Positions 16,856 to 40,696 of a stretch of DNA of 64,000 bases are shown piece after piece. A program made the translations under genes and the position numbers. Below the pieces are notes generated by a model. It searched no databases. It saw only the letters and a program-made list of their open reading frames with translations, and was not told the origin of the DNA. Each line of letters opens with the position of its first letter. Positions within the stretch are counted from its first letter, which is position 1. Source of the DNA: Thermoanaerobaculia bacterium (GTDB taxonomy: Bacteria > Acidobacteriota > Thermoanaerobaculia > UBA5066 > DATFVB01); contig DASTIQ010000044.1 in assembly GCA_035717485.1 (NCBI GenBank), positions 3,791 to 67,790 of the forward strand. The letters run 5' to 3'.

Positions 16856-17446
16856 ATGAAGGAACGCCTCGCCCGCCTGGCCCGTCCCGTTCTCGTCGTC
16901 GCCGCCGTCGCGGCGGTCTTCTCGTCCGCGCTCCTCCGCGCGGCCGCGATCAGCGCCGATCTCTCGGTCGTCAAGACCCGAACGACTCCCGCGCCGGCGC
17001 ATCCCGGCGACGTGATCGGCTACGACATCGCGGTGACGAACAACGGCATCGACGCGGCGACGAACGTCGTGGTCACCGACGTCGTGCCGGCCAACACGAC
17101 GTTCGACGAGGGAGGAATCGTGACGGCCCCAGGCTGGAACTGCACGCTTCCCCCCGTCGGAGGGACCGGAACGATGACGTGCACGATCGCCTCGTTCGCC
17201 TCGGGCGCCTCCGCAGATTTCTATCTCGAGGCGGACGTCGACGTCGGATCGAAGGTCGTCGAGGTCGACAACACGGCGGCCGTTTCCTCCGACACGCCGG
17301 ATCCCGACACGACGAACAACAGCTCGACCGTTTCCACCGAGGTGAATGCGCCGGTCGTGCCGGCCGTGCCGACGCTCACGGGGGCCGCGCTCGCCGGCCT
17401 GGCTGCCGCCGTGGCCTTCGCCGGCCTCTTGCTGCTCCGCCGGTAG
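16856..17446 (+). CDS. DUF11-like repeat surface protein with a C-terminal hydrophobic/basic sorting-signal-like tail
   Basis: Signal peptide, DLSVVKT...PGDVIGYDIAVTNNG DUF11-type fold signature. Tail is VPAVPTLTGAALAGLAAAVAFAGLLLLRR. Confidence 0.55.
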   Translation: MKERLARLARPVLVVAAVAAVFSSALLRAAAISADLSVVKTRTTPAPAHPGDVIGYDIAVTNNGIDAATNVVVTDVVPANTTFDEGGIVTAPGWNCTLPPVGGTGTMTCTIASFASGASADFYLEADVDVGSKVVEVDNTAAVSSDTPDPDTTNNSSTVSTEVNAPVVPAVPTLTGAALAGLAAAVAFAGLLLLRR

Positions 17447-17796: not shown

Positions 17797-19854
17797 GTGG
17801 CGGAGCGCAGATACGTCCTCAAGACCCCGTCGGCTCCGAAGACGTACCGCGTCGACTACGACGGGGAGCTGAACGCCGAGCAGAAGGACGTCGTCTTCGC
17901 CGGCAGCGGGCCGGTCCTCGTGATCGCCGGGGCCGGCTCCGGGAAGACGCGGACGCTCGTGTATCGCGTCTCGCGGCTCATCGAATCGGGCGTCGATCCC
18001 TCGAAGATCCTGCTCCTGACGTTCACCAACAAGGCGGCGCGCGAGATGATGCGGCGCGTCGAGGCGCTCCTGACGATCGACGCCCGGAAGATGGCGGGCG
18101 GGACCTTTCATTCGCTCGGAAACCGGCTGCTCCGCCAGTACGGCGAGCGGATCGGTCTCTCTCCGCACTTCACGATCCTCGACCCCGAGGACGCGCGCGA
18201 GATCCTCGAGGCGTCGACGTCCGACCTCCAGATCAAGACGCTCGACCGCCGCTTCCCGAAGGGGGACGTCCTCCTCGATCTCTACTCCTTCACGATCAAC
18301 ACCGAGCGGAAGCTCTCCGAGGTCCTCGCCGAGCGCGCGCCGCATTTCCTGACGCTCCACGAGGAGATCGTCCGGGTGTTCGGGCGCTATCTCGAACGGA
18401 AGAAGGCGGCGCGCGCGTGCGATTACGACGACCTGCTGCTCCACTGGAAGACCCTCCTCGACACCGAGACCGGGGGGGAGCTGTCGCGCCGGTTCTCCCA
18501 CGTCCTCGTCGACGAATACCAGGACACGAACCGTCTCCAGGGGGAGATCGTCGACGGAATGGCGCGGGGCCACGGAAACGTCACGGTGGTGGGCGACGAC
18601 GCCCAGTCGATCTACGCCTTCCGCGGCGCCTCGTTCGACAACATCATCGGTTTTCCCGAGCGGTGGCCGAAGGCGCAGGTCTTCCGGCTGACCACGAATT
18701 ACCGTTCCGTTCCCGAGATCCTCGCGCTCGCGAACGCGTCCATCGATAAGAACGAGCGTCAGTTCCGGAAGGAGCTGACCGCCGTCCGGCCCGCCGGCCA
18801 GATTCCCGGGGTCGTTCCCCTTCCCGACGCGTTCGACCAGGCGCGGTTCGTGGCGCAGCGGATCCTCGAATGGCGGGACGAAGGAGAGAAGCTCTCCGAC
18901 TGCGCCGTGCTCTACCGTTCGCACTACCAGGCGATGGAGCTCCAGATGGAGCTCACCCGGCGTTCCATCCCGTACGAGATCCGCTCCGGGATCCGGTTCT
19001 TCGAGCAGAGACACGTCAAGGACGTCCTCGCGTTCCTCCGGATCCTCGTCAATCCGCACGACGAGATCTCCTGGAAACGGGCGCTCAAGATCTTTCCCCG
19101 GATCGGTGAGCGCACGGCCGCGTCGATCTGGGACGCGATCGGGCAGGCGCGCGAGCCGCTCGAAACGTTCCGCCGCGGCGATTTCTCCGGCGCGGGCCGG
19201 GGCGCGGAGACGGCCCTCGCCCCCTTCCGGAAGCTCCTCGGCCGGCTCGACGCGCCCTCGATGCGCAACGCCCCGGCCGAGGCGATCCGGGAGATCGTCG
19301 ACTCCGTGTATCGCGACTTCGCGCGCGCGAAGTTCGCCAACGGCGACGCGCGCCTGGACGATCTGGAGCAGTTCGCGCAGTTCGCGGCCGGTTACGCGAG
19401 CCTCCCGGACTTCCTGGACGAGGTCTCGCTCTACAACGAGCTGTCGGGAGAAGACACGGTGGCGGGACTTCCCGAGGACGAGCGCGTCGTTCTTTCCTCG
19501 ATCCACCAGGCGAAAGGCCTCGAGTGGCGGCGCGTCGCGGTGATCGGTCTCTCCGAGGGGAGGTTCCCGAACTACCGCGCTTCGGCGACGGCCGAAGGGC
19601 TGGAAGAGGAGCGCCGGCTCTTCTACGTCGCGTGCACGCGCGCGAAAGACGAGCTCCTCCTGACCTATCCGATGCTCGCGCGCGACCGGTATTCGACCGA
19701 CGTGATCCTCGAAGCGTCCCGCTTCGTCTCGGAGCTCCCGGGCGAGGTCTACGAAAAGTGGATCGTCGAGCTCGAGCCGGAGGAGCGCCCCGAGCGGCCG
19801 TCCTCGTTCGAGCCGGAGGACGAGAACCAGGAAGTCCCGGAAGACGTGAACTAG
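17797..19854 (+). CDS. UvrD/PcrA/Rep family ATP-dependent DNA helicase
   Basis: 685 aa. Walker A AGAGSGKTRTLVYRV, LLLTFTNKAAREM, DEYQDTN and later helicase motifs. Confidence 0.85.
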   Translation: MAERRYVLKTPSAPKTYRVDYDGELNAEQKDVVFAGSGPVLVIAGAGSGKTRTLVYRVSRLIESGVDPSKILLLTFTNKAAREMMRRVEALLTIDARKMAGGTFHSLGNRLLRQYGERIGLSPHFTILDPEDAREILEASTSDLQIKTLDRRFPKGDVLLDLYSFTINTERKLSEVLAERAPHFLTLHEEIVRVFGRYLERKKAARACDYDDLLLHWKTLLDTETGGELSRRFSHVLVDEYQDTNRLQGEIVDGMARGHGNVTVVGDDAQSIYAFRGASFDNIIGFPERWPKAQVFRLTTNYRSVPEILALANASIDKNERQFRKELTAVRPAGQIPGVVPLPDAFDQARFVAQRILEWRDEGEKLSDCAVLYRSHYQAMELQMELTRRSIPYEIRSGIRFFEQRHVKDVLAFLRILVNPHDEISWKRALKIFPRIGERTAASIWDAIGQAREPLETFRRGDFSGAGRGAETALAPFRKLLGRLDAPSMRNAPAEAIREIVDSVYRDFARAKFANGDARLDDLEQFAQFAAGYASLPDFLDEVSLYNELSGEDTVAGLPEDERVVLSSIHQAKGLEWRRVAVIGLSEGRFPNYRASATAEGLEEERRLFYVACTRAKDELLLTYPMLARDRYSTDVILEASRFVSELPGEVYEKWIVELEPEERPERPSSFEPEDENQEVPEDVN

Positions 19855-19948: not shown

Positions 19949-21331
19949 TCAGGGGGAAGGAGTCCCGACCTTCGACTCGGTACTCGCGACCCGGGATCGG
20001 CCGATTCCGAACCGGTACATCAATCCGAGAAGAATGCGGTTGCTTCGCGACGTGTCGTCGCGCAGCTGCTCGCCCGTGAGCATCAGCGAGAAATGGCGAT
20101 CCACGTTCCAGAGGCCGTAGAGGCTGTAGCGTTTCGTCTTGGGCCGCGACTGGATGGTGACGTCGCCGGAGACGAACGTGAGCCGGGAGAGCGAGGTCGA
20201 ATAGTCCGCCGAGAGGTAGAACTTCGTGCCGAGGTTCCGTCCCAGCGACGCGTACCACGAGTCGAATGCGCCGCCCGTCCGGTCGGACCGATAGTCGGAG
20301 ACGACGACGTCGAAGCCCGATCCGAAGACGTTTCCGGCGAAGAGGCCGAGGTTCGTCCGGCCGTAGGAGCGGTCGTCGCGATTGTCCCGCTCCCGCGAAT
20401 ATCCGGCATAAACGTTGAGGCTGGGCGTGATCCGGAACGTGACCCGCCCACCCGCCGAGTCGAAGAGGAATCCCTCGATCGTCCTCGCGTCGACCGGGAT
20501 CCCGTCGAGCTGGTCCTGCGTGATCGTGCGCGCATCGACGGAACGGCCGTGGTGGTAGAGCCCCTGCAGCTCGATCCACGGGGCGGGGGCCCAGCGCACG
20601 TTCGCGAAGAGATAGTTCAGTCCCGCTTTCGCCAGGCCGCCGGGCTTTTCGACGTCGTACTCGGCTCCCTGGTAGAGGAAGAACGTGTTTCCTCCCGGGA
20701 TGAAGTTCGTCAGCGTCAGGACCGATCGCTCGGTCATTCCCGCGTCCCGGATCTGGACGAAGCCGAGGACGTGGCTCCGCGCGCCGTCGCCGTCGAGCGC
20801 GACGTATCCGCCGAATTTCCGGACGTCCTTCGCGTACCCGGCTTCGAGGATCTTCGGCTCGAGCCCGCCGAAGATGCCCAGGCGCAGGCGTCCCGCCCGC
20901 CAGGGGTCGTGCTGGCGGTAGTCGAGGAGGAGGCCGCCCACGGAACCGAGTGCACCGAGCTCGTTCAGCCACATCTGCCCGGCGCGGAACCCGAACCGCC
21001 CTCCCGCGGTCCGCGCTCCGACGTACGCGTCGTAGATCGAGTAGCGGTTGCGGCGTTCGGAGGTCGAGGGAAAAGTTTCGCCCCGGAGATCGAATCCGTA
21101 CTCGAAGCCCCCGTTGAGGTTCGACGGGCTCCGCACGGTCGCCGAAAGCGACACGTCGCTGAAATCGGTCGAATAACCGTCTCCCGTCGTTCGGCTTTCC
21201 ATCCCGAACAGCGAGATCCGTCCCCAGCCCGGCGTCTCGGGGGATTCGGGCGTTTGAGCGTCGAGCGCCGCGGCGAGGAGAACGGCGGCGACGAAGGCGA
21301 GCGCGTGAGGCAGGCGGGAACGCGGCGCCAT
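19949..21331 (-). CDS. secreted putative outer-membrane beta-barrel protein (last gene of the cytochrome operon)
   Basis: Signal peptide MAPRSRLPHALAFVAAVLLAAALDAQ. Gly/Tyr-rich alternating amphipathic segments. Its ATG 21331 lies 4 nt from the cytochrome stop (21335-21337). Confidence 0.45.
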   Translation of the reverse strand: MAPRSRLPHALAFVAAVLLAAALDAQTPESPETPGWGRISLFGMESRTTGDGYSTDFSDVSLSATVRSPSNLNGGFEYGFDLRGETFPSTSERRNRYSIYDAYVGARTAGGRFGFRAGQMWLNELGALGSVGGLLLDYRQHDPWRAGRLRLGIFGGLEPKILEAGYAKDVRKFGGYVALDGDGARSHVLGFVQIRDAGMTERSVLTLTNFIPGGNTFFLYQGAEYDVEKPGGLAKAGLNYLFANVRWAPAPWIELQGLYHHGRSVDARTITQDQLDGIPVDARTIEGFLFDSAGGRVTFRITPSLNVYAGYSRERDNRDDRSYGRTNLGLFAGNVFGSGFDVVVSDYRSDRTGGAFDSWYASLGRNLGTKFYLSADYSTSLSRLTFVSGDVTIQSRPKTKRYSLYGLWNVDRHFSLMLTGEQLRDDTSRSNRILLGLMYRFGIGRSRVASTESKVGTPSP

Positions 21332-21334
21332 GGC

Positions 21335-24300
21335 CTAGTCTCCGAGTCCCGTGGGATGACACGAATAGCAGGCGGGGGAGCTGTACAGGTAGCCCGCCAC
21401 GCCCGTGTGATGCGAGTCCGTCGTGGCCTTGTCGTGACAGGTGAGGCACGTGAATACGGCGAAGTTCAGCGGGTTCGTGTGACAGTCGGAGCAGAGGCGG
21501 CCGGCGTGCGCGCCCGACGTGATCACGAACCACGTGTGGTTGAACGTTCCCTGGAGCCAGCTCGTGTCGGAGGCCCTGTGGCAGTTCTGGCACGTCGTCG
21601 GGAAGCCCGCCGCCACGTGGTTCGGGTTCGTCGTGTTCTGGTAGGCGGTCTTGTGGCAGGAATAGCAGTCGGTCGGCGTCCCCTTGTAGACGTTGTTGAC
21701 GTGGCAGGCGGTGCACGGCTGCGTCGCGTGGACGCCGAGGAGCGTGTAGAACGTCGAATGGTTGAACGTGCCCTGCGACCAGCTCGTGTCGGAGGCCTTG
21801 TGGCAGTTCTGGCACGTCGTCGGGAAGCCCGCCGCCACGTGGTTCGGGTCGGTCGCGTTCTGGTAGGCGGTCTTGTGGCAGGAATAGCAGTCGGTCGGCG
21901 TCCCCTTGTAGACGTTGTTGACGTGGCAGGCCGAGCACGGCTGCGTGGCGTGGACGCCGACGAGCGCATAGAAGGTCGAATGGTTGAAGACTCCCTGTTG
22001 CCAGTTCGCGTCGGACGCCTTGTGGCAGTTCTGGCAGGTCGTCGGGAACCCGGCCGAGACGTGGTTCGGATTGGCGGCCGCGGCGTATTGGGCCTGATGG
22101 CACGAATAGCAGTCGGTCGGAGTGCCGGCGAAGACGTTGTTGACGTGGCACGCGGCGCACGGCTGGGTGGCATGGACGCCCACGAGCGGAAAGACCGTCG
22201 AATGGTCGAAGGCGCCCTGCTGCCAGGTCGCATCGGAGGCCTTGTGGCAGTTCTGGCAGGTCGTGGGGAATCCGGCGGAGACGTGGTTCGGATTGGCGGC
22301 CGCGGCGTATTGGGTCTTGTGGCAGGAATAGCAGTCGGTCGGAGTGCCGGCGAAGACGTTGTTGACGTGGCAGGCCGAGCACGGTTGGGCGGAGTGGACG
22401 CCGAGCAGCGGGTAGACCGGCGTGTGATCGAAGGTTCCGAGCTGCCAGGTGGGATCGCTCGCCTTGTGGCAGCTCTGACACGTCGTCGCGAATCCGGCCG
22501 CGACATGGCTCGGATTCGTCGTCTGATGGTACGCGTTCTGGTGGCACGAGTAGCAGTCCGTCGACGTTCCCTTGAAGACGTTGTTGACGTGGCACGCCGA
22601 GCAGGGTTGGGCCGCGTGGACGCCGACGAGCGGATAGACCGCACCGTGGTTGAACGTTCCGAGCTGCCAGGTGGGATCGCTCGCCTTGTGGCAGCTCTGG
22701 CACGTCGTTCCGAATCCGGCGGCCAGGTGGCTGGGATTCGTCGCCTGGTGGTAGGCGTTCTGGTGGCAGGAGTAACAGTCGGTCGGCGTTCCTTTGTAGA
22801 CGTTGTTGACGTGGCAGGCGGAGCACGGCTGGGCCGCGTGGACGCCGACGAGCGGGTAGACGGCGGTATGGTTGAACGTCGCCTGGTGCCAGGTCGTGTC
22901 GGACGCCTTGTGGCAGCTTTCGCACGTCGTCGGGAAGCCCGCCGCCGCGTGGTTCGGGTTCACCGAGCGGTCGTAGTCGCGCTGGTGGCAGGAGGCGCAC
23001 GCGGACGTCGCCGCCGTGAACACCTGATTCCCGTGGCAGGACTCGCACGCGAGCGTCCCGTGCGCCCCGTTGAGCGCGAAGCCCGTCTGGGCGGCGTGGT
23101 TCCAGACGACGGCGGCCCACGAGGTCGCGCGATGGCAGTCCTCGCACTGGTTGCCGAGACGCGTGCGGTACGGGTCGTCCTGGCGGCGGATCCAGTGGCA
23201 GTCGAAGCAGCGCGTCGGCGTTCCTTTGATCACGCCTTTCAGGTGACACGACTCGCACGGGACGAGGAGATGCCTCCCCTCGAGCGGGAAGACCCCGACC
23301 TTGTGGAACGCCCGCGACGCGTTCTTCCACGACGACGCGACCGAATGGCAGCTCTCGCAGCGGGCGCCGAGAACGCCGCGATGGGGGTCTCCGTGGCAGG
23401 AGCCGCAGGTCGTCGGCGTTCCCGCGTACCGGACGGCCGTGCCGCGTCCCGCCGGGAAGTCGGCCTCGACCTTCCGGTGACAGCCGGCGCACGCGACCGC
23501 GGCATGGCGCGCGGAGAAGAAGGACCCGGCCGCCCTGTCGGCGTGGACGTATCGCGGAATCGCGAACGTGTCGGTCGAGTGGCAGGACGCGCAGGTCGCC
23601 GCCTTCATCTGTCCGAGATGCGGGTCCTTGTGGCATCCCGCGCAGTCGAGCGGCAGGCCGCGGAGCCGCACCGCGGACCCCGTTCCGGAGGGGAAGGAGG
23701 CGGTTTCGCGCCTGTGGCACTTCTCGCAGGCGAGCGCAGCGTGCTTTCCGGTCAGCGCGAATTTCGAGCGCGCGTGGGAAAAGAGATCGGGCGCGAACTT
23801 CGAGCCCGCGACCGAGTGACAGCTCTCGCATGACGTCCCGAGCTGGCCGAGATGGGGGTCTTTGTGGCAGGAGGCGCACGCGAACGGGACCTGTGTGAAT
23901 CGCCGCTCGGCGCCGGCTTTCGGGGCGCCGTGGCATTTCTCGCAGGCGACCGCCGCGTGCCCCGCCGCGAAGAATTCGGGCCGACGGGGATGCGTGTAGT
24001 CGGTCACGCGGAAAGTCCGCGTCGTGTGGCACTTCTGGCAGGCGGTCCCGAGCTCGCCCCGGTGGACGTCCGTGTGGCACGACGCGCAATCGGACCGGGC
24101 TCCGCGGAAATCGACCGCGGCCGGGCTTCCGGCGCCCTGCGCCGGGGCGTTCTTGTGGCACGACGCGCAGGGGATCTCCGCGTGCCTTCCGTCGAGCGGG
24201 AACTTCGTGCGCGCGGCGTGGTCGAACGCGGCCTTCCGGAAGCCGTCCTCCCGGTGGCAGGAAGCGCAGTCCTCCTTGAACACGCCGCGATGGGGATCCC

Positions 24301-25246
24301 GGTGGCAATCCGCGCAGCGGGCGGCCGGGATCCGGACTTTCACCGCGCTCTGGACATGGCATTTCGCGCAGGGCACGGTCGCGTGCGCCCCGAGCAGCGG
24401 ATACCCCGTCTTCCCGTGATCGATCTTTTCCGTCCGGAAGGTCGCGGTCGTGTGGCACGACTCGCAGGCGCCGAGCGGCTTGCGGTGCGGGTCGCGGTGG
24501 CAGTCGGCGCACGCGGCGAACTTCTCGATCTTCCAGGCGCCGGCCCGGTGACAGCTCTCGCACTTGAGGGCGGCGTGAGCGCCCGTGAGCGGAAAAGCGG
24601 TCTTCGCGTGGTCGAATCCGCGGCGCGTCTCCTTGAACGCGACCGACGCGGAATGGCAGCGCGCGCAATCGGCGCCCAGCGCGCCGCGGTGCGGGTCGGC
24701 GTGGCACGACGCGCAACCGGGCGAGGCGGCGAGGTACGACCGCGCCTTGTGGCAGCTCGCGCACGAAAGCCCGGCGTGCTTTCCCTCGAGCGGAAAGCCG
24801 GCGTCCTTCGCGTGGTCGAAGGTCTTCGGGTCGAAGCGCGTGATCGCGGCGTCGGCGCCGGCGTGCTCGACGTGGCAGGAAACGCAGCTTTCGCCGGCGG
24901 TTCGGTGAACTCCCTTTCCGGCCGCGATCCGTTCGGCGATCGGCCGATGGCAGGCGAGGCACTTCGCGGGCGTGACCTGTCGACCCGGTTCGTGGCACTT
25001 CTGACAGTTGTCGATCCCTTCGAGCTTCGCGTGAAACCGCGAAAGCGGCCCGGGCGAGACCAGGCCACCGAGCTGCTGGGCGCGGGCGATGGGCGCGAGC
25101 CCCGCGGTGAATGCCGCCAGGAGGAAGCATGGGAGAAGGGCGTGGCCGACGGGGAGCGCCCGGCGCCGCGAGCGGGTCCGACCGCGGTCGTCTCTCCCGG
25201 CGGGCGCGGGCGACGAGGCGGTGCGCGCCGTCCCGGCCCTCACCAC
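21335..25246 (-). CDS. giant multihaem cytochrome c (about 1300 aa, about 51 CxxCH motifs) with seven tandem 74-aa triheme repeat modules
   Basis: I counted about 51 CxxCH in the minus-strand translation. Probable GTG start at 25246 or 25243, overlapping the upstream gene stop. N-terminal ...SRRRALPVGHALLPCFLLAAFTAGLAPIARAQ signal. The track ORF 21335..25738 includes a spurious extension. Confidence 0.8.
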   Translation of the reverse strand: MVRAGTARTASSPAPAGRDDRGRTRSRRRALPVGHALLPCFLLAAFTAGLAPIARAQQLGGLVSPGPLSRFHAKLEGIDNCQKCHEPGRQVTPAKCLACHRPIAERIAAGKGVHRTAGESCVSCHVEHAGADAAITRFDPKTFDHAKDAGFPLEGKHAGLSCASCHKARSYLAASPGCASCHADPHRGALGADCARCHSASVAFKETRRGFDHAKTAFPLTGAHAALKCESCHRAGAWKIEKFAACADCHRDPHRKPLGACESCHTTATFRTEKIDHGKTGYPLLGAHATVPCAKCHVQSAVKVRIPAARCADCHRDPHRGVFKEDCASCHREDGFRKAAFDHAARTKFPLDGRHAEIPCASCHKNAPAQGAGSPAAVDFRGARSDCASCHTDVHRGELGTACQKCHTTRTFRVTDYTHPRRPEFFAAGHAAVACEKCHGAPKAGAERRFTQVPFACASCHKDPHLGQLGTSCESCHSVAGSKFAPDLFSHARSKFALTGKHAALACEKCHRRETASFPSGTGSAVRLRGLPLDCAGCHKDPHLGQMKAATCASCHSTDTFAIPRYVHADRAAGSFFSARHAAVACAGCHRKVEADFPAGRGTAVRYAGTPTTCGSCHGDPHRGVLGARCESCHSVASSWKNASRAFHKVGVFPLEGRHLLVPCESCHLKGVIKGTPTRCFDCHWIRRQDDPYRTRLGNQCEDCHRATSWAAVVWNHAAQTGFALNGAHGTLACESCHGNQVFTAATSACASCHQRDYDRSVNPNHAAAGFPTTCESCHKASDTTWHQATFNHTAVYPLVGVHAAQPCSACHVNNVYKGTPTDCYSCHQNAYHQATNPSHLAAGFGTTCQSCHKASDPTWQLGTFNHGAVYPLVGVHAAQPCSACHVNNVFKGTSTDCYSCHQNAYHQTTNPSHVAAGFATTCQSCHKASDPTWQLGTFDHTPVYPLLGVHSAQPCSACHVNNVFAGTPTDCYSCHKTQYAAAANPNHVSAGFPTTCQNCHKASDATWQQGAFDHSTVFPLVGVHATQPCAACHVNNVFAGTPTDCYSCHQAQYAAAANPNHVSAGFPTTCQNCHKASDANWQQGVFNHSTFYALVGVHATQPCSACHVNNVYKGTPTDCYSCHKTAYQNATDPNHVAAGFPTTCQNCHKASDTSWSQGTFNHSTFYTLLGVHATQPCTACHVNNVYKGTPTDCYSCHKTAYQNTTNPNHVAAGFPTTCQNCHRASDTSWLQGTFNHTWFVITSGAHAGRLCSDCHTNPLNFAVFTCLTCHDKATTDSHHTGVAGYLYSSPACYSCHPTGLGD
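21548..23100. repeat. tandem 222-bp repeats (about seven copies, adjacent copies near-identical) inside the cytochrome gene
   Basis: ctcgtgtcggaggcc... recurs at 21561 and 21783 (222-nt period). Protein unit is FNH..Y.L.GVHAAQPC.ACHVNNV..GT.TDCYSCH....NP.H.AAGF.TTCQ.CHKASD..W. Confidence 0.8.
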
Positions 25247-26181
25247 CGCACCATTCCGTAGCCGAGGTAGATCGCGACCGCGACGTGCAGCGCCGCGATC
25301 ACGAGCATCACGTAGACGAGCGGCTTGTGGAACACGTGCCAGAGGGAGAAGAGCTTCTTCGTCCGGCCCAGATACGCGATCCGCCGGCGGAGCACCGCGC
25401 GATCGCGGATCAGGGCGAAAACCTCGGCGAGCCGCTCCTCCTCGAGGCCGGTGCGACGGATCTCGCGCTTGAGCTCCCGGAGCGCCCGCCGAAGGAGCAG
25501 GTCGCCGACGAGGAACGCCCGGCCGCTGCTCTCCGCGCCCCGAGCGACATGCCGCTCGAAAGCGTCGATCTTCGAGACCACCGCCGGGGGAAGACCTTCG
25601 CCGGCGAGCTCCGCCGTGAGCTCCGCGGTCCGGGCGGCGAGCTCCCCGTACGTCAGTTCGTTTCCGCGAATGCTCTTCGGGACCCGGACGTAGAGATACC
25701 GCCCGACGAACCCGGAGAGGACGACGAGCGCCATGCACCAGTACGCGACCGAGATCACGCCGTTGAATTTGAAGGAGGTGTGGAGCGTGATGAGAACGGG
25801 GCCGACGATGCCGCAGAAGATGTGGGCTTCGAGCCAGTTCTTCGCCGATCCCACTTTCGAGAGGCGGCGGGATTTCTTCCGGACGACGTAGAGCAGCGTC
25901 GCCAGGAGAAGGATCGAGCCGCCGACGGCGAAGAGCTGCCCCCCCGTCCCCGCCGGGCGGAGGAGACGGTGCGCCGGATCGAACCCTCGAGCGCGGAGCG
26001 GCGTACGGTAATAGCTCCAGCCGCCGAAGCCCGCGAGGGTCGCGATGATGAAGACGCCGCTGACGATCCCCGCGAGGAGGAGAACGTTCGTGAGGCCGGG
26101 CATGGGGGCCCAGCCCGGACGAGCCGGCGCTCCGGCGGGCGCCTCCGGACGCGCTCCTCCGGCCTCGGGCCGCTCAGGCAT
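25240..26181 (-). CDS. polytopic membrane protein with conserved His in TM helices (candidate haem-b electron-transfer subunit)
   Basis: 313 aa, five predicted TM helices (e.g. WLEAHIFCGIVGPVLITLH; LWHVFHKPLVYVMLVIAALHVAV). Its stop overlaps the cytochrome start and its start overlaps the reductase stop. Confidence 0.5.
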   Translation of the reverse strand: MPERPEAGGARPEAPAGAPARPGWAPMPGLTNVLLLAGIVSGVFIIATLAGFGGWSYYRTPLRARGFDPAHRLLRPAGTGGQLFAVGGSILLLATLLYVVRKKSRRLSKVGSAKNWLEAHIFCGIVGPVLITLHTSFKFNGVISVAYWCMALVVLSGFVGRYLYVRVPKSIRGNELTYGELAARTAELTAELAGEGLPPAVVSKIDAFERHVARGAESSGRAFLVGDLLLRRALRELKREIRRTGLEEERLAEVFALIRDRAVLRRRIAYLGRTKKLFSLWHVFHKPLVYVMLVIAALHVAVAIYLGYGMVRW

Positions 26182-27517
26182 CGATCACGCACTTTCCCCG
26201 CGCGAAGGAAACGCACGGAAGGATCCACCCCTCCCGCCGGTCGGCATCGTCCAGGTCCGCCTCCGCCTCGACGTCTCCTTCGACCAGGCGGGTCCGGCAC
26301 GTTCCGCAGATTCCCGAGCGGCACGAGAACTCGATCGCGACGCCGGCCCGCTCGGCGGCATCGAGGAGGGTCTCCGAGGCGGAGGCCGACGCGCGGCGGC
26401 CCGACCGCGCGAACACCACCTCGGATGCTTCTCTCGAGGAGGGCGCGAAGCCCCGGGAGCCTCCGGGCATCACCGGCTCGCGCGACGCCCACGCGACGGC
26501 CGCTTCGAACGCTTCCGCGTGGATGCGTTCGGCGGGGACGCCGATCGCTCCGAGGAGCTCCGTCATCGAGGCGATCATCGGAAGGGGCCCGCAAAGGCAC
26601 GCGACGGACTCCGCCGCTTCCGGCGCGACGCTGCGCACGAAGTTCTCGTCGATGCGGCCGGGAAATCTCCGCGGATCGCCCTCCCCCCGGGTGAGCGCGA
26701 CGACGATCCGCGTTCGCGGATGGAGACTCTCGATCCGGTCGAGCTCGCGGCGGAACGGGACGTCGGCTTCGGTTCGCGCGGAGAGGAGGAGGGTGACGGG
26801 CCGCTCCGGATCGGCTGCCACGGCATGCCGAATCATGCTCATGAGCGGCGTCGCGCCGACGCCCCCTCCGATCAGGAGAATCGGGCGGCGGTCCTTCGAG
26901 GGATACCGGAAATGCCCGCCCGGGCCGCGGATCTCGAGGGTCGATCCGGTTCGCAGCGTCTCGTGGAGAGCGGTCGAAACCACCCCCTGCCGTTTCACCG
27001 TGATCTCGAGATGGCCGCGAGATTCCGGCGCCGAGCTGATCGTGTAGCAGCGGACGAGAGGCTTCCCCCCCACCCGGACCCGGATGGAGAGGAACTGGCC
27101 GGCCGCGAACTCGAACCCGGGCGGGCGGGCGATGCGGAACGTGCGGATATCGGGCGTCTCGTCGAAAGCCGAGAGGACCGGCGTCGGCAGGAAGCCCGGC
27201 GCGGGCCTCCCGGGAATCACGGCGTTCGCCGGGGCCCCGGGTTCGCCCGTGGTCTTCGGCGTGCCGAGCTTCTCGCACGCAGCGAACCACGCGACGTGGA
27301 GAAGGAGTCCGAGAGCGAGCCCGGCGGGGCTCGGCAGGAGCCAGGGAGCGGCGACGAAGAGAAATGACGCGAAGAGAAGCGGCTTCGATCTGCTTCTTTC
27401 GCGGCGCAGGAGCGCGAGAGCGAGGTGGAGGGTCGTGACGAACGCGAGAGCGGACGAGGAGGCGGGAGAGACGAGGATCTCCCGGTACACCCCGATGTCA
27501 CCGCCCGCCATCGGCAT
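26174..27517 (-). CDS. membrane-anchored FAD/NAD(P)H oxidoreductase with C-terminal 2Fe-2S ferredoxin domain (FNR-like / phthalate-dioxygenase-reductase-type)
   Basis: GGAGGAAAAC then ATG at 27517. N-terminal TM helices, RCYTISS FAD motif, LLIGGGVGATP NAD motif, C-terminal CRSGICGTC...C plant-type ferredoxin motif. Confidence 0.7.
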   Translation of the reverse strand: MPMAGGDIGVYREILVSPASSSALAFVTTLHLALALLRRERSRSKPLLFASFLFVAAPWLLPSPAGLALGLLLHVAWFAACEKLGTPKTTGEPGAPANAVIPGRPAPGFLPTPVLSAFDETPDIRTFRIARPPGFEFAAGQFLSIRVRVGGKPLVRCYTISSAPESRGHLEITVKRQGVVSTALHETLRTGSTLEIRGPGGHFRYPSKDRRPILLIGGGVGATPLMSMIRHAVAADPERPVTLLLSARTEADVPFRRELDRIESLHPRTRIVVALTRGEGDPRRFPGRIDENFVRSVAPEAAESVACLCGPLPMIASMTELLGAIGVPAERIHAEAFEAAVAWASREPVMPGGSRGFAPSSREASEVVFARSGRRASASASETLLDAAERAGVAIEFSCRSGICGTCRTRLVEGDVEAEADLDDADRREGWILPCVSFARGKCVIDA

Positions 27518-27808: not shown

Positions 27809-28942
27809 TCAGCGCCGGCCGTGGACGATGGCGGCGCGGGCGGGCGCCGGCACCCCGGCGACGGCGGGGATCGCCCGGATCGAGCCGAAGAGCCCGTGGC
27901 TCTCGCCATCCGGGCCCGACGTGAAGAAAAGGAGGTTGGTGCTTCCGCCGGAGCCCCCGTTGCCGAACCGCAGTCCCCACAGCCCGTCGATCACGAGAGG
28001 CTGGCCGCTCGGGAGGAGCATCTGTCCGAGGAAGTCGCCCGTCGACGGGTCGAAGGCGTTGATCCGGCCGTCGCCGAAGTTGCCGACGAGGATGGCTCCC
28101 GCGAACGCCCCGAAGTTTCCGGGCGCGAGCACCATTCCCCAGGGAGAGTTGAGCGCGCCCTGGGCGGCGAACTGCCGGATCAGGGTGCCGCTCGTGTCGA
28201 ATTCGTCGACGTAGCCGTTGCCCGCCCCCGCGACGTCGTCGTGCGCGTCGGCGTCCTGTTTGGCGAAGGAGACGTAGAGATTCCCGCCGATGTTCGCGAT
28301 TCCGAACGGGGCGAAGCCGAGGGCGGTGAGACTCGAATCGGTGAACGTCGTCGTGGGCGTGAACGTCGAATCGAACACCTGGACGAAGCCGTCGTGGAAG
28401 TCGGTCGCGTAGAGGAAGTTCCCCGAGCCGGTGCTGCCGAGCGCGAGGCCTTTGAACACGGCTCCGCTCGCCGAGAGATCGGCGGAGGCCGGAAGGATCG
28501 CGTGGGTCGCATCGACGCTCGGGTTCCAGCCGGAAATCGTCCCGTCCTCTCCGGCGAAGATGAACACCGCGGAACCGCTCACGGAGTTCTCCGTCACCAT
28601 GAACTGGCCGGTCGCGTTGAAGACGAGTCCCGTCGGAACGGCGCCTTCGGTGTTGGCCGCCCCGGCGGGGATCGTCACGACGAGCGGAAGGGGAGTCCCG
28701 TTTCCGTGATAGATGGTCGACGTTCCCGAACCGTTGTTGGCGATCCAGATCGGTCCGCTTCCGCTCGAGGCGATGCCCCAGGCGTTCACGAGATTCGGAT
28801 CCGTGAAGGCCGCCAGGCCCGGCTCGTCGGAGACGAGGTTGTGGGGAATGTAGCGCTGCGCCGACGCGGGGATCGCCGCGAGCGCGAGCAGCGCGGCGGC
28901 GGCGCCGCGGGTCATGAAAGAGACGACTCGGGTTTTCGTCAT
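27809..28942 (-). CDS. secreted beta-propeller repeat protein (function unknown)
   Basis: GGAGGA then ATG 28942, signal peptide MTKTRVVSFMTRGAAAALLALAAIPASA. Gly/Asn/Thr-rich repeats. The track ORF 27809..28999 has a slightly extended start. Confidence 0.55.
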   Translation of the reverse strand: MTKTRVVSFMTRGAAAALLALAAIPASAQRYIPHNLVSDEPGLAAFTDPNLVNAWGIASSGSGPIWIANNGSGTSTIYHGNGTPLPLVVTIPAGAANTEGAVPTGLVFNATGQFMVTENSVSGSAVFIFAGEDGTISGWNPSVDATHAILPASADLSASGAVFKGLALGSTGSGNFLYATDFHDGFVQVFDSTFTPTTTFTDSSLTALGFAPFGIANIGGNLYVSFAKQDADAHDDVAGAGNGYVDEFDTSGTLIRQFAAQGALNSPWGMVLAPGNFGAFAGAILVGNFGDGRINAFDPSTGDFLGQMLLPSGQPLVIDGLWGLRFGNGGSGGSTNLLFFTSGPDGESHGLFGSIRAIPAVAGVPAPARAAIVHGRR

Positions 28943-29060
28943 TTTTCCTCCTTCCGGGGAGATTCCCGGTTGACGATTTCCGGCGGCCGGGGCGTGCAAC
29001 GGGAATGCCTCGCGGGCGGTTTCTCAAGGCGGTTTAATGAAAACGGAATAGATTTCCGCG

Positions 29061-31920: not shown

Positions 31921-34900
31921 TCAGTCCCCCAGGACGACCCTCACGTCGTGGCGCTTTCCGTCGCCGTGGCGCGGAATCGACCGGTCGGCCGAGGGCGCGC
32001 CGTCCACGACGACTTCCCGCACGCCGCGGCACGCACCGCGCGGGTTCTCGACCGTGATCGCGTAGAGCGTCTCGTTGCCGTCGCGGAGCTGGATCTCGAA
32101 GCGCGGCCAGCGCCGCGGAATGCACGGATCCACGCGGAAACGGGAGCCTTCGAGCCGCAGGCCGAGGATCGACTCGGTCGCCGCGCGATAGAGCCACCCG
32201 GCCGAACCCGTGTACCAGGTCCAGCCGCCGCGCCCCGTGAGCGGCTCGACCGAATAGACGTCGCCGGCGGTCACGTACGGCTCGACCTTGTAGCGGTGAA
32301 GGCCCGCGCGGGTGCTGGTCGGCGCGATCGGGTTGACGAGCGCGAGGAGCTCGCCGGCGAGGTCACCCTGACCGAGCTCGGCGAACGCCATGATCGTCCA
32401 GGCCGCCGCGTGCGTGTACTGGCCGCCGTTCTCGCGGATCCCGGGGAGATACCCCTTGATGTAGCCCGGGTCCCTCGGCGTCGTATTGAACGGAGGGGTG
32501 AAGAGGAGGATCAGCCCGTCCTCGCGGCGGACGAGATACTGCTCCACGGCGACCATCGCGCGCTCGACGCGGACGCGGTCGCCCGCGCCGGAGAGCGCCG
32601 CCCACGTCTGGGCGAGCGAATCGATCCGGCATTCGGCGTCGCGCGCGGAGCCGAGCGGCGTCCCGTCGTCGTAGAAGGCGCGGACGTACCAGTCCCCGTC
32701 CCACGCGTGCTCTTCGATCGCGGACTTCAGCGCGCCGGCCTGCCCGCGATAACGCGTCGTGCGCTCTCCGTCGCCGCGCCGCTCGGCGACGGCCGCGAAC
32801 CGGCTGAGCGTGGCGTGGAGGAACCAGCCGAGCCAGACGCTCTCTCCCTTCCCCTCGAATCCGACGCGATTGAACCCGTCGTTCCAGTCTCCCGAGCCGA
32901 TCAGCGGAAGGCCGTGGGAGCCGACGGCCGCCGAGCGGTCGAGAGCGCGCACGCAGTGCGCATAGACGCTCTCCCGGAGGTCCGATTCCTTCGGCTCCTG
33001 GTACGACTCGACCTCGCCCTCCGCCAGCACCGGCCCCTCGATGTAGGGAACGGATTCGTCCAGGAGCCCCTCGTCTCCGGTCGCGTCGACGTAGCTCGCG
33101 ACCGCATAGGGGAGCCAGAGATAGTCGTCGGAACATCGCGTCCGGACACCGCGGCCGCTCGGCGGATGCCACCAGTGCTGGACGTCGCCTTCGAGGAACT
33201 GATGAGAGGCGAACCGGGGAATCAGCCGCCGCGCGATTTCCGGCGCGAGCGAGGCCACGCCGAGCGCGTCCTGGATCTGGTCGCGGAATCCGAAGGCGCC
33301 GCTCGATTGATAGAACGCCGTCCGCCCGCGAATCCGGCACGAAATCGCCTGGTAGGGGAGCCAGCGATTGACGAGGAGGTCGAGAGCGGGATCCGGGGTC
33401 CGGACGACGATTCCGCCGAGGAGGCGATCCCAGGAGCGGCGGGCCTGCTCCAGCGCGCCTTCGACGGACGCCGGGTCCCGGAAACGTTCGATCAGGGCGG
33501 ATGCCCGCTCGCGATCGCCGGCCTGGCCGAGGAGGAACACGATCTCGCGCGTCTCGCCGGGAAGGAGCGGGAACGAGGCCAGGTGCGCGGCGCACGGATC
33601 GAGCCCCGCTCCCGCGCGTCCGAGGAGCGTCGTCCGTCGAAGCGCCGCCGGGTCGGAAACGTGTCCGTTCCGGCCGAGGAACTCGCGCCGGTCCGCCGTC
33701 GCGGCGAGGCGCGCGCCGGGAGCGTGGACCGCCGAGAACGCGACGCGCGATCCGAACTCGGCGTTGTAGGGATTGCGCGCGAAGATCGCTCCTCCGGCCG
33801 GGTCGCTCTGCGTGATCACGAACCGCGCGGTGGACCGGTCGACGCCGAGGACCCATTCGGCGTAGTGCGCGGCCGACAGTCGCCGGGCCGCCGTGCCGTG
33901 GTTCGTCAGCCGCAGGCGCGTGATCTTGACGGCGCCCTCTTCGGGAACGAACGTCGTGACCTCCGCGGCGATGGCGCCCCGGCGATGTTCGAAGACGGTG
34001 TATCCCTGCCCGTGGCGGCACACGCACGGTTCGGGTCCGCGGATCGGGAGGGCGGTCGGCGACCAGAGATCCGCCGTTTCGTCGTCCCGGAGATAGATCG
34101 CCTCCCCCGAAGGGTCGGAGACCGGATCGTTCGACCACGGCGTGAGCCGGTTCTCCTGGCTGTTCTCCGACCACGTGCAGGCGGAGCCCGATTCGCTCAC
34201 GAAGAAGCCGAACTCGTCGTTGGCGACGACGTTGACCCACGGCGCCGGCGTGTACTGCCGCTCGGCGAGGCTGACGACGTATTCCCGCCCGTCCGGCGTG
34301 AACCCGCCGATTCCGTTCCCGAAGAGGAGACGGCGCGGCTCGGGAGGAGGTCCCGCGGGTCGCGCCGCGGCCGCGGTCGAGGCCGTGAGCGGCGCCGGCC
34401 AGGATTCGAGAGCGGGGGGACGCTCGATCTGTTCGGCGAGCGTCCCGCGCTCACCGACGAGGACCGCGCGCGCCGCCGTCTGCAGGAGAGTCGCGTCCTC
34501 CTCGGAGATCTGGTCCCCCCTCCGGACGAAGACCCCTCCCGGCTTGTCGACGAGGGCCTGCGAGGGCGACGCGCCGATCAGCCGCTGGATCTGTTCCTGG
34601 ACGGGCTGGAAGTACCCGGACGGGTCGTCGTTGACGATCACGAGGTCGACCGAGAGACCCTTCAGGCGCCAGTACTCGTGCGCGCGGATCAGCTGACGCG
34701 CGAGTTCCGTCTCGTCCGCGCTTCCGATCCGGAGGAGGACGATCGGCAGGTCTCCGGAGATCCCGTGGCCCCACAGGTTCCGCTGCGATCCGGCGTTTCG
34801 CGACAGGACCTCCGGCGGCGGGCGCAGGCTCGGGTCGTCGTAGACGATGCGGGTCGCGAGCCGCTGGAAGAGCTGCGCCTCGTCGGCCGTGACGTCGAGG

Positions 34901-37900
34901 TGGCGGAGAAGGACCTGCGACCGCATCCAGGCGAGGGACGCCTCCCGGTCGAAGAGCCGCGGGTCCTGGAAGCGCTCCGCGAGCGCGACGGCCGCTTCGC
35001 GGCTGTCGGCGACGCCCGTCGAAAAGAGGAGGCGCGCGGTCTCGCCGGGCGCGATCCGCACGCGCTGCCGCAGCGAGAAGATCGGATCGAGCACCGCGCC
35101 GGTCGTGTTGGAGAGCGGCCGGTCTTCCACGAGCACGGCCGGCGCGCGCGGCGACCGTCCTCGGCCCAGGAACCGGGCCCGGTCGGTCTCGTACTGCACC
35201 GCGCCGAGCGTGGCGCCGCGGACGGCGAGGACGTGGACCGCCCAGACCGGCGCCTCCTCCGCCGAGCGCGGACGACGGCGGGCGAGAAGGGCGTTGCCGA
35301 TCCATTCGGTTTCGACGAAGAGCTTCGAGAAGGCCGGATGCGAGACGTCCGCCGCCCTCGCGCCGAGGACGATCTCGGCGTAGCTCGTCACCTCGATGTC
35401 GCGCGCATCGCGGGCGCGCGGGGACGTGTTGGCGAGCGTGACGCGGCGGATCTCGGCGTCGTCCTGCGACGAGACGATGACCTCCATCGTCGTGTCGATT
35501 CCCTCGTCGGATCGGGAGATCTCGACCTTGTGTTCCGAGAATCGCGCCTCGAAACGCTTCGGCGGCCGCACGGTCGGCTGGTAGCCGGCCGACCAGTTGA
35601 CGCCGCTCCGGACGTCCCGCAGATAGATCCACGATCCCCACGAATCGGTCGTCGCGTCGTCCCGCCAGCGGGTCACGGCGAGGTTTCCGCGCCGGCTCTC
35701 TCCGGCTCCGGCCGCGGTCATCAGGACGGAATAGCTGCCGTTCGAGAGGATCTGGGTGCGCGGCGTCGGAGTGTCGGGCGTCTCGAACCGCCGGAACGGG
35801 ATGGTCGCCTCTTCCCGGACGACGCGGCCCGCCGCGACCTGGGCCACGATCGCACCGGCCAGCGCGGCGGTGTTGCGCGGGATCCGTTCCTGCAGCAGGA
35901 GCTCGGTCGCCTGGACGGAGGGGTCGGCGTGGAACCGCTCCCGCATCACGTCGCGGTTGAGGTAGTTGTCGAGCGCGAGAAGGATCATCCCCTGGTGGTG
36001 CGCCATCGACGCCTTGATCACCGCTCGGCCCGCGTCCGGCGGCAGGCGCCTCTCGGTGTAGTCCACGGACTCCCAGAAGCCGAACGGACCGCGCGCGCCC
36101 TCGGCCGCGAGCCGCCGCAGATTCTCCGCGGCGCCCGAAGGGTCGGCGAGGAGGGCGAGGAAGGTCGAGTAGGGGGAGACGACGAGCTCGTCGGGAGAGG
36201 TGCGCCGCAGGCCGAGCTCCGGCACGCCGAACGGTCCGTACTGGTAGTTCAGGTGCAGATCGCGGGCGTTGTACGCCGATTCGGAGACCCCCCACGGAAC
36301 GCCCCGCGCGCGCCCGTACTGCATCTGCGCGGCGACGGCGTTCCGGCAGGTCGACGCCAGGAGCGTCCCCGGATAAGAACGGAGCAGGAGGAGGGGCATG
36401 AGGTACTCGAACATGCTCCCCGACCAGGAGAGGAGGAGCGGCTTTCCGGCGGCGACCGTGAAAGGCCGCTGGAGGCGGAACCAGTGCTCCGTCGGCGCGT
36501 CTCCCTTCGCGATCGCGAGGAAGCTCGTCAGGCGGGCCTCCGACACGAGGAGGTCGTAGTACGAACGGTCGAGGCGGCCGAGCGCCGGATTGAAGCCGAT
36601 CGAGAAGACCTTGCGGTCCGGATCGAAGAGGAACCCGAAATCCATTTCGCGGACGAGCGATTCGGCGCGCTGCGCGATCGCCAGGAGCCGTTCCGCCCGG
36701 GACGGGGGCGGATCTGCCGCGGGCGCGACGGCTCCCGCCGCCGATGCCGGGACGGCCGCCGCGGGCGGATCGCCCGGGAGGCCGCGCCCGAGCGAATCGA
36801 CCTGCGCGAGGAGATCGGCGAGCCAGCCCCTCAGGTCGGCGATCTCGAGCTCGCGGTGCTCCGCCGCGAGGGCGGAGAGCCCGTCGGCGATCTCGGCGGC
36901 GAGGCGCGCCATTTCGCGGAGACACTTTTCCTCGTCCCGCTCGGCCAGGGCCGTCTCCGAGAGCATCCGAATCTGCTCGCGGAGCTGGTGCACCGGGACC
37001 GCCTCGGTCCGGACGCCCGACGGCGGGACCTTTTCGAACTCGCGGGCGACGATCCGCGCGACGTCCGCGAGGCCGTCGCGCCAGGCGTCGCTCTCGCCGC
37101 CGGATGCCGCGAGCGCCTTCGCCCCTTCTTCGAGAGCGACGAGGCATGCCGCGAGATTCCCGCTGTCCACCGACGAGACGTAGAGCGGGTGGAGGGGCGT
37201 CAGCGTCAGCGTGTCGTACCAGTTGTAGAAGTGGCCGCGGTGGCGGGGGAGCCGCTCGAGCGAGCCGAGGGTGCGCTCGAGGCGGCCGATCGCGTCGTCC
37301 GTCCCGACGTAGCCGAAATCGTGAGCGGCGAGCACGGCCAGGAGCGAGAGTCCGACGTTCGTCGGGGACGTCCGGTGCGCGACGGGCGGATCGCGGTCTT
37401 CCTGGTAGTTGTCCGGCGGGAGGCCGTTCTCGGCGGCGCCGCAGAACCGGTCGAAGTATCGCCACGTCTGCCGGGCGATCTCGCGGAATTCCCGCCGCTC
37501 GGCGTCGGAGATCTCCGGCCGCGCTTCGGGGATCGGGCGGGAGAGCTGGGCCGCGAGCGCCGGGGCGACGACCCAGAGCAGGAGGAAGGGAGAGGCGGCG
37601 ACGAGGCTTCCCGGAGCGAACGCCGCGGTCGCCGCGGCGAGGACGATCGTGAGCGTCCAACCCGCCCCCATGCGCCGGAAGTAGGCGGGCACCGAGTCGG
37701 CCCGGTTCTTCTCGGCGGCGGCGGCGGTGGTCCAGTCGAGGAGGCCCCGGTGCGACACGAACTGCCGCCAGGTGGCGCGGAGAGCCGCGTCGAGCGACAC
37801 GATCGCCAGATGCGGGAGGAAGGCGACGCGGAGCGCGAACTGCGCGCAGTTGTCCATCGCGTCTCCCCAGACGCTCCAGAAATGGCTCGTCCAGGGAATG

Positions 37901-40485: not shown

Positions 40486-40547
40486 CGCCGTGCTCCTGCC
40501 CAACCCACCTCCGGGGCGCGCGAGCAGCCTCGCGGGGCGCGCCTCGC

Positions 40548-40577: not shown

Positions 40578-40696
40578 CGGCGTGCCTGCCCGCCGCGCCT
40601 GTCCCCGCTGTCGCTCCACCCCGTAGCGCCCGGGCGGCTGACCACGTGTCGACGAGCCCGGATTGACCGGGCTCTTTTATTTGGGGAGAGGTGCCC

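Follow-up and report, generated by a model that had tools for sequence, protein, structure and literature searches.

The porin-cytochrome c clusters named PCC3 and PCC4 were predicted in neutrophilic Fe(II)-oxidising and other Proteobacteria by He, Barco, Emerson and Roden in 2017 (PMC5566968), and the prediction was extended in a further study (PMC9900912). The membrane protein of PCC3 is about 300 amino acids (aa) long, with five transmembrane (TM) helices, an SGxxG motif on TM4 and the motif W-x3-H-x13-H on TM3 and TM5, and it was proposed to be a quinone-active dihaem cytochrome b by analogy with bc1 and with the cytochrome b of [NiFe] hydrogenases (PMC5566968). In Leptothrix cholodnii, PCC3 combines a 22-strand porin with a 24-haem periplasmic cytochrome (supplement of PMC5566968). 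The periplasmic cytochromes of Gallionellaceae PCC3 have 21, 24 or 27 haems, and the median for PCC3 is 26 aa per haem. Here we analyse a four-gene operon in a stretch of 64,000 nucleotides (nt), hereafter the window, from a Thermoanaerobaculia bacterium of the phylum Acidobacteriota (assembly GCA_035717485.1, contig DASTIQ010000044.1, positions 3,791 to 67,790). The operon encodes, in this order, a reductase with FAD, NAD(P)H and [2Fe-2S] domains, a five-helix membrane protein, a 51-haem cytochrome c and a predicted outer-membrane barrel. On balance, we favour the view that these genes specify a quinone-independent electron conduit across the whole envelope, that is, a PCC3-type system that would have its own cytoplasmic entry enzyme.

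The operon and its likeness to PCC3

The operon lies at positions 19949-27517 of the window, the G+C content of which is ~69%, and is made of four consecutive open reading frames (ORFs), all on the minus strand. The genes and the parts of their products are as follows.

26174-27517, minus strand: reductase, 447 aa
27263-27517, minus strand: reductase N-terminus (aa 1 to ~85), a membrane domain with about three hydrophobic helices (hydropathy and alignment)
Reductase aa 119-205, minus strand: FAD_binding_6 domain (Pfam)
Reductase aa 215-318, minus strand: NAD_binding_1 domain (Pfam)
26201-26407, minus strand: C-terminal Fer2 domain of the reductase (PF00111), aa 371-439 (Pfam, E 4.8e-17)
25240-26181, minus strand: membrane protein, 313 aa
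21335 to GTG 25246/25243, minus strand: cytochrome c, about 1302 aa (ORF open from 25738)
23311-25243, minus strand: cytochrome part 1, signal peptide and haems 1-24, aa 1 to ~645 (CxxCH positions)
21335-23310, minus strand: cytochrome part 2, haems 25-51, aa ~646-1302 (MHC-B motif at haem 25)
21537-22961, no strand assigned: tandem array of a 222-bp repeat, 6.4 copies, 83% identity (TRF)
19949-21331, minus strand: barrel, 460 aa

The stop codon of the reductase gene and the ATG of the membrane-protein gene overlap by 8 nt, the TGA of the latter and the GTG of the cytochrome gene overlap by 4 nt (GTGA), and the gap from the cytochrome TAG to the barrel ATG is 3 nt. These junctions agree with the four coupled minus-strand genes proposed in the initial annotation, apart from a trivial correction of the last gap, given there as 4 nt. 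The gene products also came out as annotated there: a membrane-anchored FNR-like reductase with a C-terminal plant-type 2Fe-2S domain (Pfam domains and a hydrophobic N-terminus of ~85 aa), a five-helix membrane protein with conserved His pairs (AlphaFold2 helices and an alignment of 56 sequences), a cytochrome of about 1300 aa with about 51 CxxCH motifs, and a secreted putative outer-membrane barrel (signal peptide and predicted strands).

The reductase was aligned with 70 homologues from the fetched loci. The Cys residues of its Fer2 domain, in the pattern C-x4-C-x2-C...C, are kept in this alignment, and so are H31, W59 and W77 (≥95%) and H74 (≥80%) of the N-terminal part. Phthalate dioxygenase reductase, PaaE, GbcB and Hcr have the same cofactor domains in the same order (FAD, NAD, [2Fe-2S]), and the nearest solved structures are the P450, benzoate and phthalate dioxygenase reductases. 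The window protein differs from these oxygenase reductases in its additional N-terminal membrane domain with conserved His and Trp residues, and in its partner gene, which encodes a candidate membrane haem protein and not an oxygenase. Its scores against the NCBIfam equivalogs were all below half of the cut-offs (GbcB 178/500, PaaE 177/421 and Hcr-like 151/383 bits). No oxygenase gene adjoins the reductase gene in the window, nor in any locus for which we read the gene table. The Fer2 domain is presumed to be the exit for electrons towards the membrane protein.

The membrane protein has no match above threshold in Pfam or NCBIfam, the families cytochrome b561, Ni_hydr_CYTB and DUF4405 included (Pfam gathering scores), and a PDB sequence search with its profile gave no meaningful match. 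In the AlphaFold2 model (pLDDT 80.8), the protein has five TM helices, the fourth and fifth of which are separated by a helical insert of ~100 aa. Among the 56 homologues, TM3 has an invariant W116-x3-H120-x13-H134, TM4 an invariant S156-G-x-x-G160 (S156-G-F-V-G160 in the window) and TM5 an invariant W281-H282-x2-H285-x13-H299, with four invariant His residues spaced by 14 residues within TM3 and within TM5. Sub-threshold Pfam matches among the 56 members were to Ferric_reduct (PF01794; 38), DUF4405 (31) and Ni_hydr_CYTB (27). As it has these four His residues and these sub-threshold matches, the protein is best read as an outlying candidate dihaem cytochrome b. One haem b would then lie near each membrane face, a spacing of 14 residues corresponding to ~21 Å. 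The insert between TM4 and TM5 is rich in Arg and Lys and is therefore probably cytoplasmic (positive-inside rule). The family is large, with more than 1200 close homologues; an exhaustive search gave 2957 representatives (clusters at 50% identity) at E ≤ 1e-3 and 1582 at E ≤ 1e-10.

Translation of the cytochrome can start ahead of its first haem motif only at the GTG codons 25246 and 25243. The protein of ~1302 aa has exactly 51 CxxCH motifs and neither CxxxCH nor CxxxxCH, which amounts to 25.5 aa per haem. The mature protein contains 105 His and 1 Met, and this number of His suffices for bis-His ligation at all 51 haems. The dense packing of the haems together with the sufficiency of His for all-bis-His ligation suggests a pure electron wire. 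The N-terminus (25075-25243, minus strand) is a signal peptide with an unusually long Arg-rich n-region (GRTRSRRRALPVGH) that resembles a twin-arginine motif, which is odd for a c-type cytochrome, as these are normally exported unfolded by the Sec route.

The two parts of the cytochrome have separate counterparts elsewhere. Part 1 corresponds to the 24-haem 'periplasmic' MHC-A of split variants and of PCC3, and aligns with the MHC-A of Emticicia (described below) at a BLASTP E value of 1e-93; its first ~200 mature residues also align with the 7-haem cytochromes of plasmids (BLASTP ~1e-13). At its N-terminus stands the motif Q-L-x-x-L-V-S-P-G-x-L-x3-H-x2-L-E-G-x3-C-x-K-C-H, common to MHC-A of distant loci, of which the segment in the mature protein, from S-P-G onwards, is conserved from the Acidobacteriota to the distant branch of the family. 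This N-terminal unit probably docks onto a conserved periplasmic loop of the membrane protein. Part 2 is the counterpart of MHC-B, which is designated 'extracellular' in PCC3, fused without a signal peptide of its own. In split loci, MHC-B starts with a signal peptide followed by F-x-T-P-N-R-x-F-H...C-x-S-C-H...C-x-D-C-H-W-x-R-R-Q-D-D. Since the same start motif sits at haem 25 of the window protein, the latter is a fusion of 24 and 27 haems.

Part 2 is repetitive, and its 222-bp array encodes trihaem units of 74 aa with a haem spacing of 33/16/25 (protein repeat listing). Tandem trihaem c7-like units that form a long haem chain are likewise found in the polymeric c7 'nanowire' cytochromes of Geobacter (GSU1996 family), and the window protein reached a score of 40.4 with TIGR04257 (cut-off 40) and has 15 Cytochrome_C7 stretches. 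It differs from the GSU1996 family in its 51 haems (versus 12), in its 74-aa units and in its position in a membrane-to-barrel operon. No match at E ≤ 1e-3 was found among PDB sequences.

The 460-aa protein is predicted with high confidence to be an outer-membrane β-barrel. It has a signal peptide and 22 predicted strands, ending with L-M-Y-R-F ahead of a tail of 19 aa. Nothing above threshold was found for it in Pfam, including MtrB_PioB (PF11854), or in NCBIfam.

The comparison with PCC3 was made by motifs, counts and descriptors; a profile search with a diverse membrane-protein alignment retrieved none of the named Sideroxydans or Leptothrix proteins. On this basis, the window membrane protein is like that of PCC3 in its length, its five TM helices, its SGxxG and both its W-x3-H-x13-H motifs. 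Haems 1-24, at 25.5 aa per haem, are like the PCC3 periplasmic cytochrome. The repetitive second part of 27 haems is like the second PCC3 cytochrome, but fused to the first, and the barrel has the strand number predicted for the porin of Leptothrix cholodnii. The membrane protein, cytochrome and barrel thus match the already predicted PCC3 kind in every descriptor that could be compared. The window operon differs from PCC3 as published in opening with the FAD/NAD(P)H/[2Fe-2S] reductase, and in its host, a member of the Acidobacteriota.

The main text of PMC5566968 nowhere uses the words FAD, ferredoxin and 2Fe-2S. We found no publication that links a flavoprotein of the FNR or thioredoxin-reductase type to these clusters, in a literature in which subscription journals were thinly covered, so that this absence is no proof. 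A 2026 preprint on acidobacterial clusters for extracellular electron transfer (EET) deals with other architectures. The initial annotation had taken the whole gene combination for an undescribed one. This does not hold for the membrane protein, the giant cytochromes and the porin, which match PCC3 (PMC5566968); only the flavin/ferredoxin NAD(P)H entry module appears to be new.

Conservation and the distant branch

We examined 80 loci, taking one genome per species; most of the titled records are Acidobacteriota, with Thermoanaerobaculia, Vicinamibacterales and Holophagae among the lineages. The reductase gene lies directly upstream of the membrane-protein gene and on the same strand in all the 80 loci. 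Of the 72 loci that could be evaluated for it, 71 have a gene for a cytochrome with at least 10 haems immediately downstream, and a barrel homologue comes next in 49 of 52, or in 51 of 52 when two assemblies with frameshifts are counted in. The four-gene set is therefore conserved in other genomes, as the annotation from the window had led us to look for, and the recurrence of this gene order in 80 independent genome loci puts it far beyond chance. Some loci encode the cytochrome as a single giant protein and others as two proteins, most often with 24 haems plus 21, 24 or 27.

In an Acidobacteriota contig of a metagenome-assembled genome (MAG; CAVRZJ010000024.1, 8434-18486 of locus L014), the cytochrome ORF has at least 3351 aa and at least 134 CxxCH motifs and is open at the contig end; the maximum quoted in PMC5566968 is 85 haems. 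In the loci L002 (8623-14424) and L003, the genes that come after those of the reductase and the membrane protein encode a 10-haem Paired_CXXCH cytochrome of the MtrA-like kind and a 759-aa MtrB_PioB porin, which replace the giant cytochrome and the 22-strand barrel; the host contig is a 3.2-Mb contig of a wastewater MAG. The reading as an electron conduit gains support from this variant, as the same reductase and membrane protein are there paired with an MtrA-like decahaem cytochrome and MtrB_PioB. Two further loci (L058 and L081) carry the acidobacterial module in MAGs labelled Methanoregulaceae archaeon and Bifidobacterium breve, probably because of binning errors.

More distant relatives of the membrane protein (29-35% identity) occur without the FNR-type reductase. 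They are clustered instead with a flavoprotein of ~440 aa. A single TM helix at its N-terminus is combined with two [4Fe-4S] motifs and a YpdA/thioredoxin-reductase-like FAD/NAD(P) fold, which we take to be the fold of the thioredoxin-reductase-like ferredoxin-NADP+ reductases. This flavoprotein was found in 6 sampled loci, and in every locus with enough downstream sequence among 80 metagenome loci. The next genes in the metagenome loci of the distant branch encode a 20-haem (sometimes 23-haem) cytochrome, a second cytochrome of 13-80 haems and a barrel candidate of ~540 aa. The alignment of this candidate with the window barrel is weak (hhalign probability 43%, E 2.6e-4), and both proteins have the same ...R-F end.

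The FNR-type reductase and the thioredoxin-reductase-like flavoprotein are thus non-homologous analogues that occupy the same slot in two deep branches. Two unrelated fusions, both membrane-anchored and both combining an iron-sulphur domain with a pyridine-nucleotide flavoprotein, argue that the membrane protein exchanges electrons with such an enzyme and not with the quinone pool. We consider this the strongest argument for such an exchange.

A sister system was observed in a cultured member of the Bacteroidota, on plasmid pEMTOL02 of Emticicia oligotrophica DSM 17448 (locus L094; NC_018749.1, 81299-89995), beside ccsA. Its genes (EMTOL_RS21090-21110) encode the membrane protein, the thioredoxin-reductase-like flavoprotein with two [4Fe-4S] motifs, cytochromes of 23 and 40 haems and a candidate barrel of 538 aa, and nearby genes specify a Rieske protein, a YceI protein and a DUF5777 barrel.

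A reduced trio, made up of the reductase, the membrane protein and a 7-haem cytochrome, was present on 41 PLSDB plasmids, mostly of Proteobacteria. The protein with TM, FNR and Fer2 parts has 600-690 aa in the trio, the membrane protein has 235-250 aa with H-x13-H on two helices, and the cytochrome is a 7-haem cytochrome c3. The trio shows that the reductase, the membrane protein and the cytochrome make up a unit of their own where no barrel is present. In the four plasmids inspected (L095-L098; Bradyrhizobium BTAi1, Legionella pneumophila, Alteromonas macleodii and Variovorax RA8), the trio has copper/multicopper-oxidase, heavy-metal sensor or hydrogenase genes as neighbours. The Bradyrhizobium BTAi1 plasmid has two copies of the trio, one of them cut by an IS3 element, and one membrane protein of the plasmid trios is labelled 'iron reductase' in RefSeq.

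The proposed electron route and its alternatives

The conduit proposed in the initial annotation, leading from NAD(P)H through a flavin/ferredoxin entry module to a haem wire, is supported by the synteny, by the barrel prediction and by the L002/L003 variant, and from the sequence features it may be pictured as follows. NAD(P)H would reduce the FAD of the membrane-anchored reductase, the [2Fe-2S] cluster of which would hand single electrons to a haem b at the cytoplasmic side of the membrane protein (H120 with H285 or H282). Each electron would cross the inner membrane to a second haem b at the periplasmic side (H134/H299) and enter the N-terminal c-haems. Haems 1-24 would span the periplasm, while the last 27 haems may thread through or emerge from the 22-strand barrel. 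In chains such as those of MtrA and OmcS, one haem accounts for ~8 Å; at this value, 24 haems would extend over ~19 nm and 51 haems over ~40 nm. The final acceptors may be Fe(III)/Mn(IV) minerals, humic matter and possibly O2. The logic would be that of a NOX/FRE-type ferric reductase split into subunits and stretched over two membranes. The gene content, domains, folds, invariant His geometry, synteny and exchange of the entry enzyme for an analogue are shown by the analysis, and from these we infer haem b binding, complex formation, the NAD(P)H donor, the outward direction and the identity of the acceptor.

The direction is suggested by energetics. With NAD(P)H (-320 mV) as the donor, electrons that move from the N side to the P side run downhill and are helped by the membrane potential, and an outward direction is preferred because the reverse would be uphill in both respects for donors of the Fe(II) type.

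Among the described systems, MtrCAB, MtoAB and PioAB resemble the proposed conduit in having a multihaem cytochrome sheathed by an outer-membrane barrel that carries electrons across the outer membrane. Barrels of the MtrB type have 26 strands, and Mtr systems are fed from quinol by CymA and not from NAD(P)H. The window barrel, in contrast, has 22 predicted strands and no MtrB_PioB match, and the cytochrome scored 76.8 with the DmsE/MtrA model TIGR03508 (cut-off 192.2). As both the barrel and the cytochrome fail the Mtr family models, the operon is not an Mtr system. The window system would work like the NOX/FRE/FRO enzymes and MsrQ-Fre, but it is split into several polypeptides and has five TM helices instead of six. 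Its reductase has FAD_binding_6 and NAD_binding_1 domains in place of FAD_binding_8 and NAD_binding_6 (the NAD_binding_6 score was 16.6 bits with a Pfam cut-off of 22.2) and would add a [2Fe-2S] step, and its acceptor would be a multihaem cytochrome and not O2 or Fe(III) directly. The split polypeptides, the other FAD/NAD families, the extra iron-sulphur step and the lack of a Pfam match above threshold set it apart from the NOX/FRE family.

CymA, ImcH, CbcL and CbcBA are quinol dehydrogenases, and the Ndh2/EetA/EetB system of Listeria is a flavin-based route; all of them pass via quinone. Like the inner part of the window system, they are steps at the inner membrane devoted to passing electrons from respiration or NADH on to carriers in the periplasm or outside the cell. 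Unlike these, the window operon has no quinone-reactive family above threshold, and it has a ferredoxin-type iron-sulphur domain that would be placed to reduce haem b.

Several points count against the proposed conduit. In Fe(II) oxidisers, PCC3 has been modelled as an inward, quinone-linked route without mention of a reductase gene, and it is a predicted system that was still functionally untested in 2025. An outward flow of electrons would dissipate the membrane potential and is not obviously energy-conserving. Two loci also depart from the set: in L024, neither a cytochrome nor a barrel is encoded in the 10 kb downstream of the reductase and membrane-protein genes, and L008 has a single 23-haem cytochrome and no barrel homologue. 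The loss of membrane potential makes it likely that the conduit would serve for redox balancing, as a sink for electrons when growth is fermentative or microoxic, or to attack Fe(III)/Mn(IV) minerals and humic matter reductively.

The five-helix protein may instead be a quinone-active dihaem cytochrome b, as proposed for PCC3 (PMC5566968), with the reductase only as an accessory, which would act as an NAD(P)H:quinone reductase or help in redox poising or repair. We hold this to be unlikely, and still the foremost competitor. It is in line with the match of some distant members to Ni_hydr_CYTB, a quinone-reactive family in Pfam, and with the other well-studied EET routes, every one of which starts, to our knowledge, at the quinone pool. 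What speaks against it is the flavoprotein itself: a flavoprotein/iron-sulphur gene is an obligatory neighbour in both deep branches, its product is membrane-anchored and translationally coupled, and it has been swapped for a non-homologous analogue and not lost. Moreover, no quinone-site motif was identified in the membrane protein, and its conserved helical domain of ~100 aa, which is probably cytoplasmic, suits the docking of a protein partner. The membrane protein could hold a quinone site in addition. The same wiring might also act outside respiration and use NAD(P)H to reduce metals in the periplasm or outside the cell, either to obtain iron from minerals or to detoxify metals. Given the plasmid contexts, we regard assimilatory or detoxifying metal reduction as a serious alternative, even though its probability appears rather low. 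The trio lies in copper/heavy-metal islands on the Variovorax, Legionella and Alteromonas plasmids, and the RefSeq label and the cost of outward flow in membrane potential point the same way, as does the carrier Emticicia oligotrophica, presumably an aerobe, which was isolated from warm spring water. The eukaryotic FRE/FRO assimilatory ferric reductases follow the same logic. On the other side, 45-134 haems per protein would be costly for iron acquisition, and the expansion of repeats in the outer part suggests that selection has favoured a wire long enough to touch solid phases, as with respiratory nanowires. In the flanks of the window operon there is no Fur box and no gene for siderophores or metal resistance, and a scan for promoters and terminators yielded nothing informative.

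An inward route, by which Fe(II), Mn(II), reduced humics or a partner cell would be oxidised and electrons passed along the wire to the flavoprotein to make NAD(P)H, seems quite improbable. PCC3 is enriched in Fe(II)-oxidising Gallionellaceae, and iron oxidation by Sideroxydans CL21 goes along with up-regulation of the inner-membrane component in one PCC3 copy; enzymes of the FNR type also run physiologically towards NADP+ reduction in phototrophs. However, by their standard potentials, Fe(II) donors near 0 to +0.2 V would be unable to reduce NAD(P)+ at -0.32 V, electrons going from the P side to the N side have to overcome the membrane potential, and no energy-coupling subunit is encoded in the operon. 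The carriers, moreover, are Acidobacteriota and Bacteroidota-like lineages and not known lithoautotrophic iron oxidisers. We therefore rejected NAD(P)+ reduction by inward flow as the principal explanation on thermodynamic grounds. Least probable by far, to the point of being nearly negligible, is a coincidental neighbourhood in which the reductase would be an ordinary oxygenase or P450 reductase with its partner elsewhere. The catalytic domains are indeed closest to those of PaaE, GbcB and the benzoate and phthalate dioxygenase reductases. Against this stand the adjacency in all the loci, the 8-nt overlap of stop and start codons in the window, the conserved membrane domain, which is missing from soluble oxygenase reductases, the low equivalog scores and the lack of an adjoining oxygenase gene where this was looked for. 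Synteny and the membrane anchor together effectively refute the ordinary dioxygenase reductase, which the initial annotation had named as one of the outcomes that would undo its reading.

Taken further, the quinone-independent conduit may bear on the whole kind. We tentatively suggest, with rather less confidence than for the window operon itself, that PCC3-type systems form a widespread quinone-independent 'two-membrane NOX/FRE' class and are not quinone-linked machines for iron oxidation. A membrane-anchored ferredoxin-flavoprotein would have been recruited to this class at least twice, from unrelated folds, and would feed NAD(P)H electrons straight into the dihaem b protein, and the wire would range from 20 to more than 134 haems.

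Neighbouring genes and biological meaning

Directly upstream of the operon and on the same strand, a gene at 27809-28999 (minus strand) encodes a secreted protein of 396 aa with a weak NHL-repeat match. The NHL proteins known from Uet clusters made it a possible fifth gene of the set, but we placed it outside the module because none of 84 related loci has a homologue. Further upstream, a 3009-aa ORF (31921-40950, minus strand) has the architecture of a cyclic β-1,2-glucan synthase, with a GT2, a glucoamylase-like and two GH94 domains; GH94 genes lie in the same relative place in the closest related MAG locus (L001/L005). On the other side of the operon, a gene at 16856-17446 (plus strand) encodes a small secreted DUF11/CARDB-repeat protein with a C-terminal hydrophobic tail, upstream of a UvrD-like helicase gene at 17797-19854.

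If true, a route that starts at NAD(P)H and bypasses the quinones would be a different bioenergetic solution, one of redox balancing or reductive attack on minerals as opposed to respiration that builds a proton-motive force. It would change the reading of PCC3 genes in metagenomes, where they are now used as candidate markers of iron oxidation. Because the entry enzyme is a simple NAD(P)H-dependent flavoprotein, which can be assayed, the inner-membrane step of PCC3 becomes accessible to direct tests. The module is common (the 1582 representatives at E ≤ 1e-10) in abundant and poorly cultured lineages of soil, sediment and wastewater, and it would give the Acidobacteriota, Bacteroidota-like and other soil and sediment bacteria a direct outlet for electrons from the cytoplasm to minerals or to humus.

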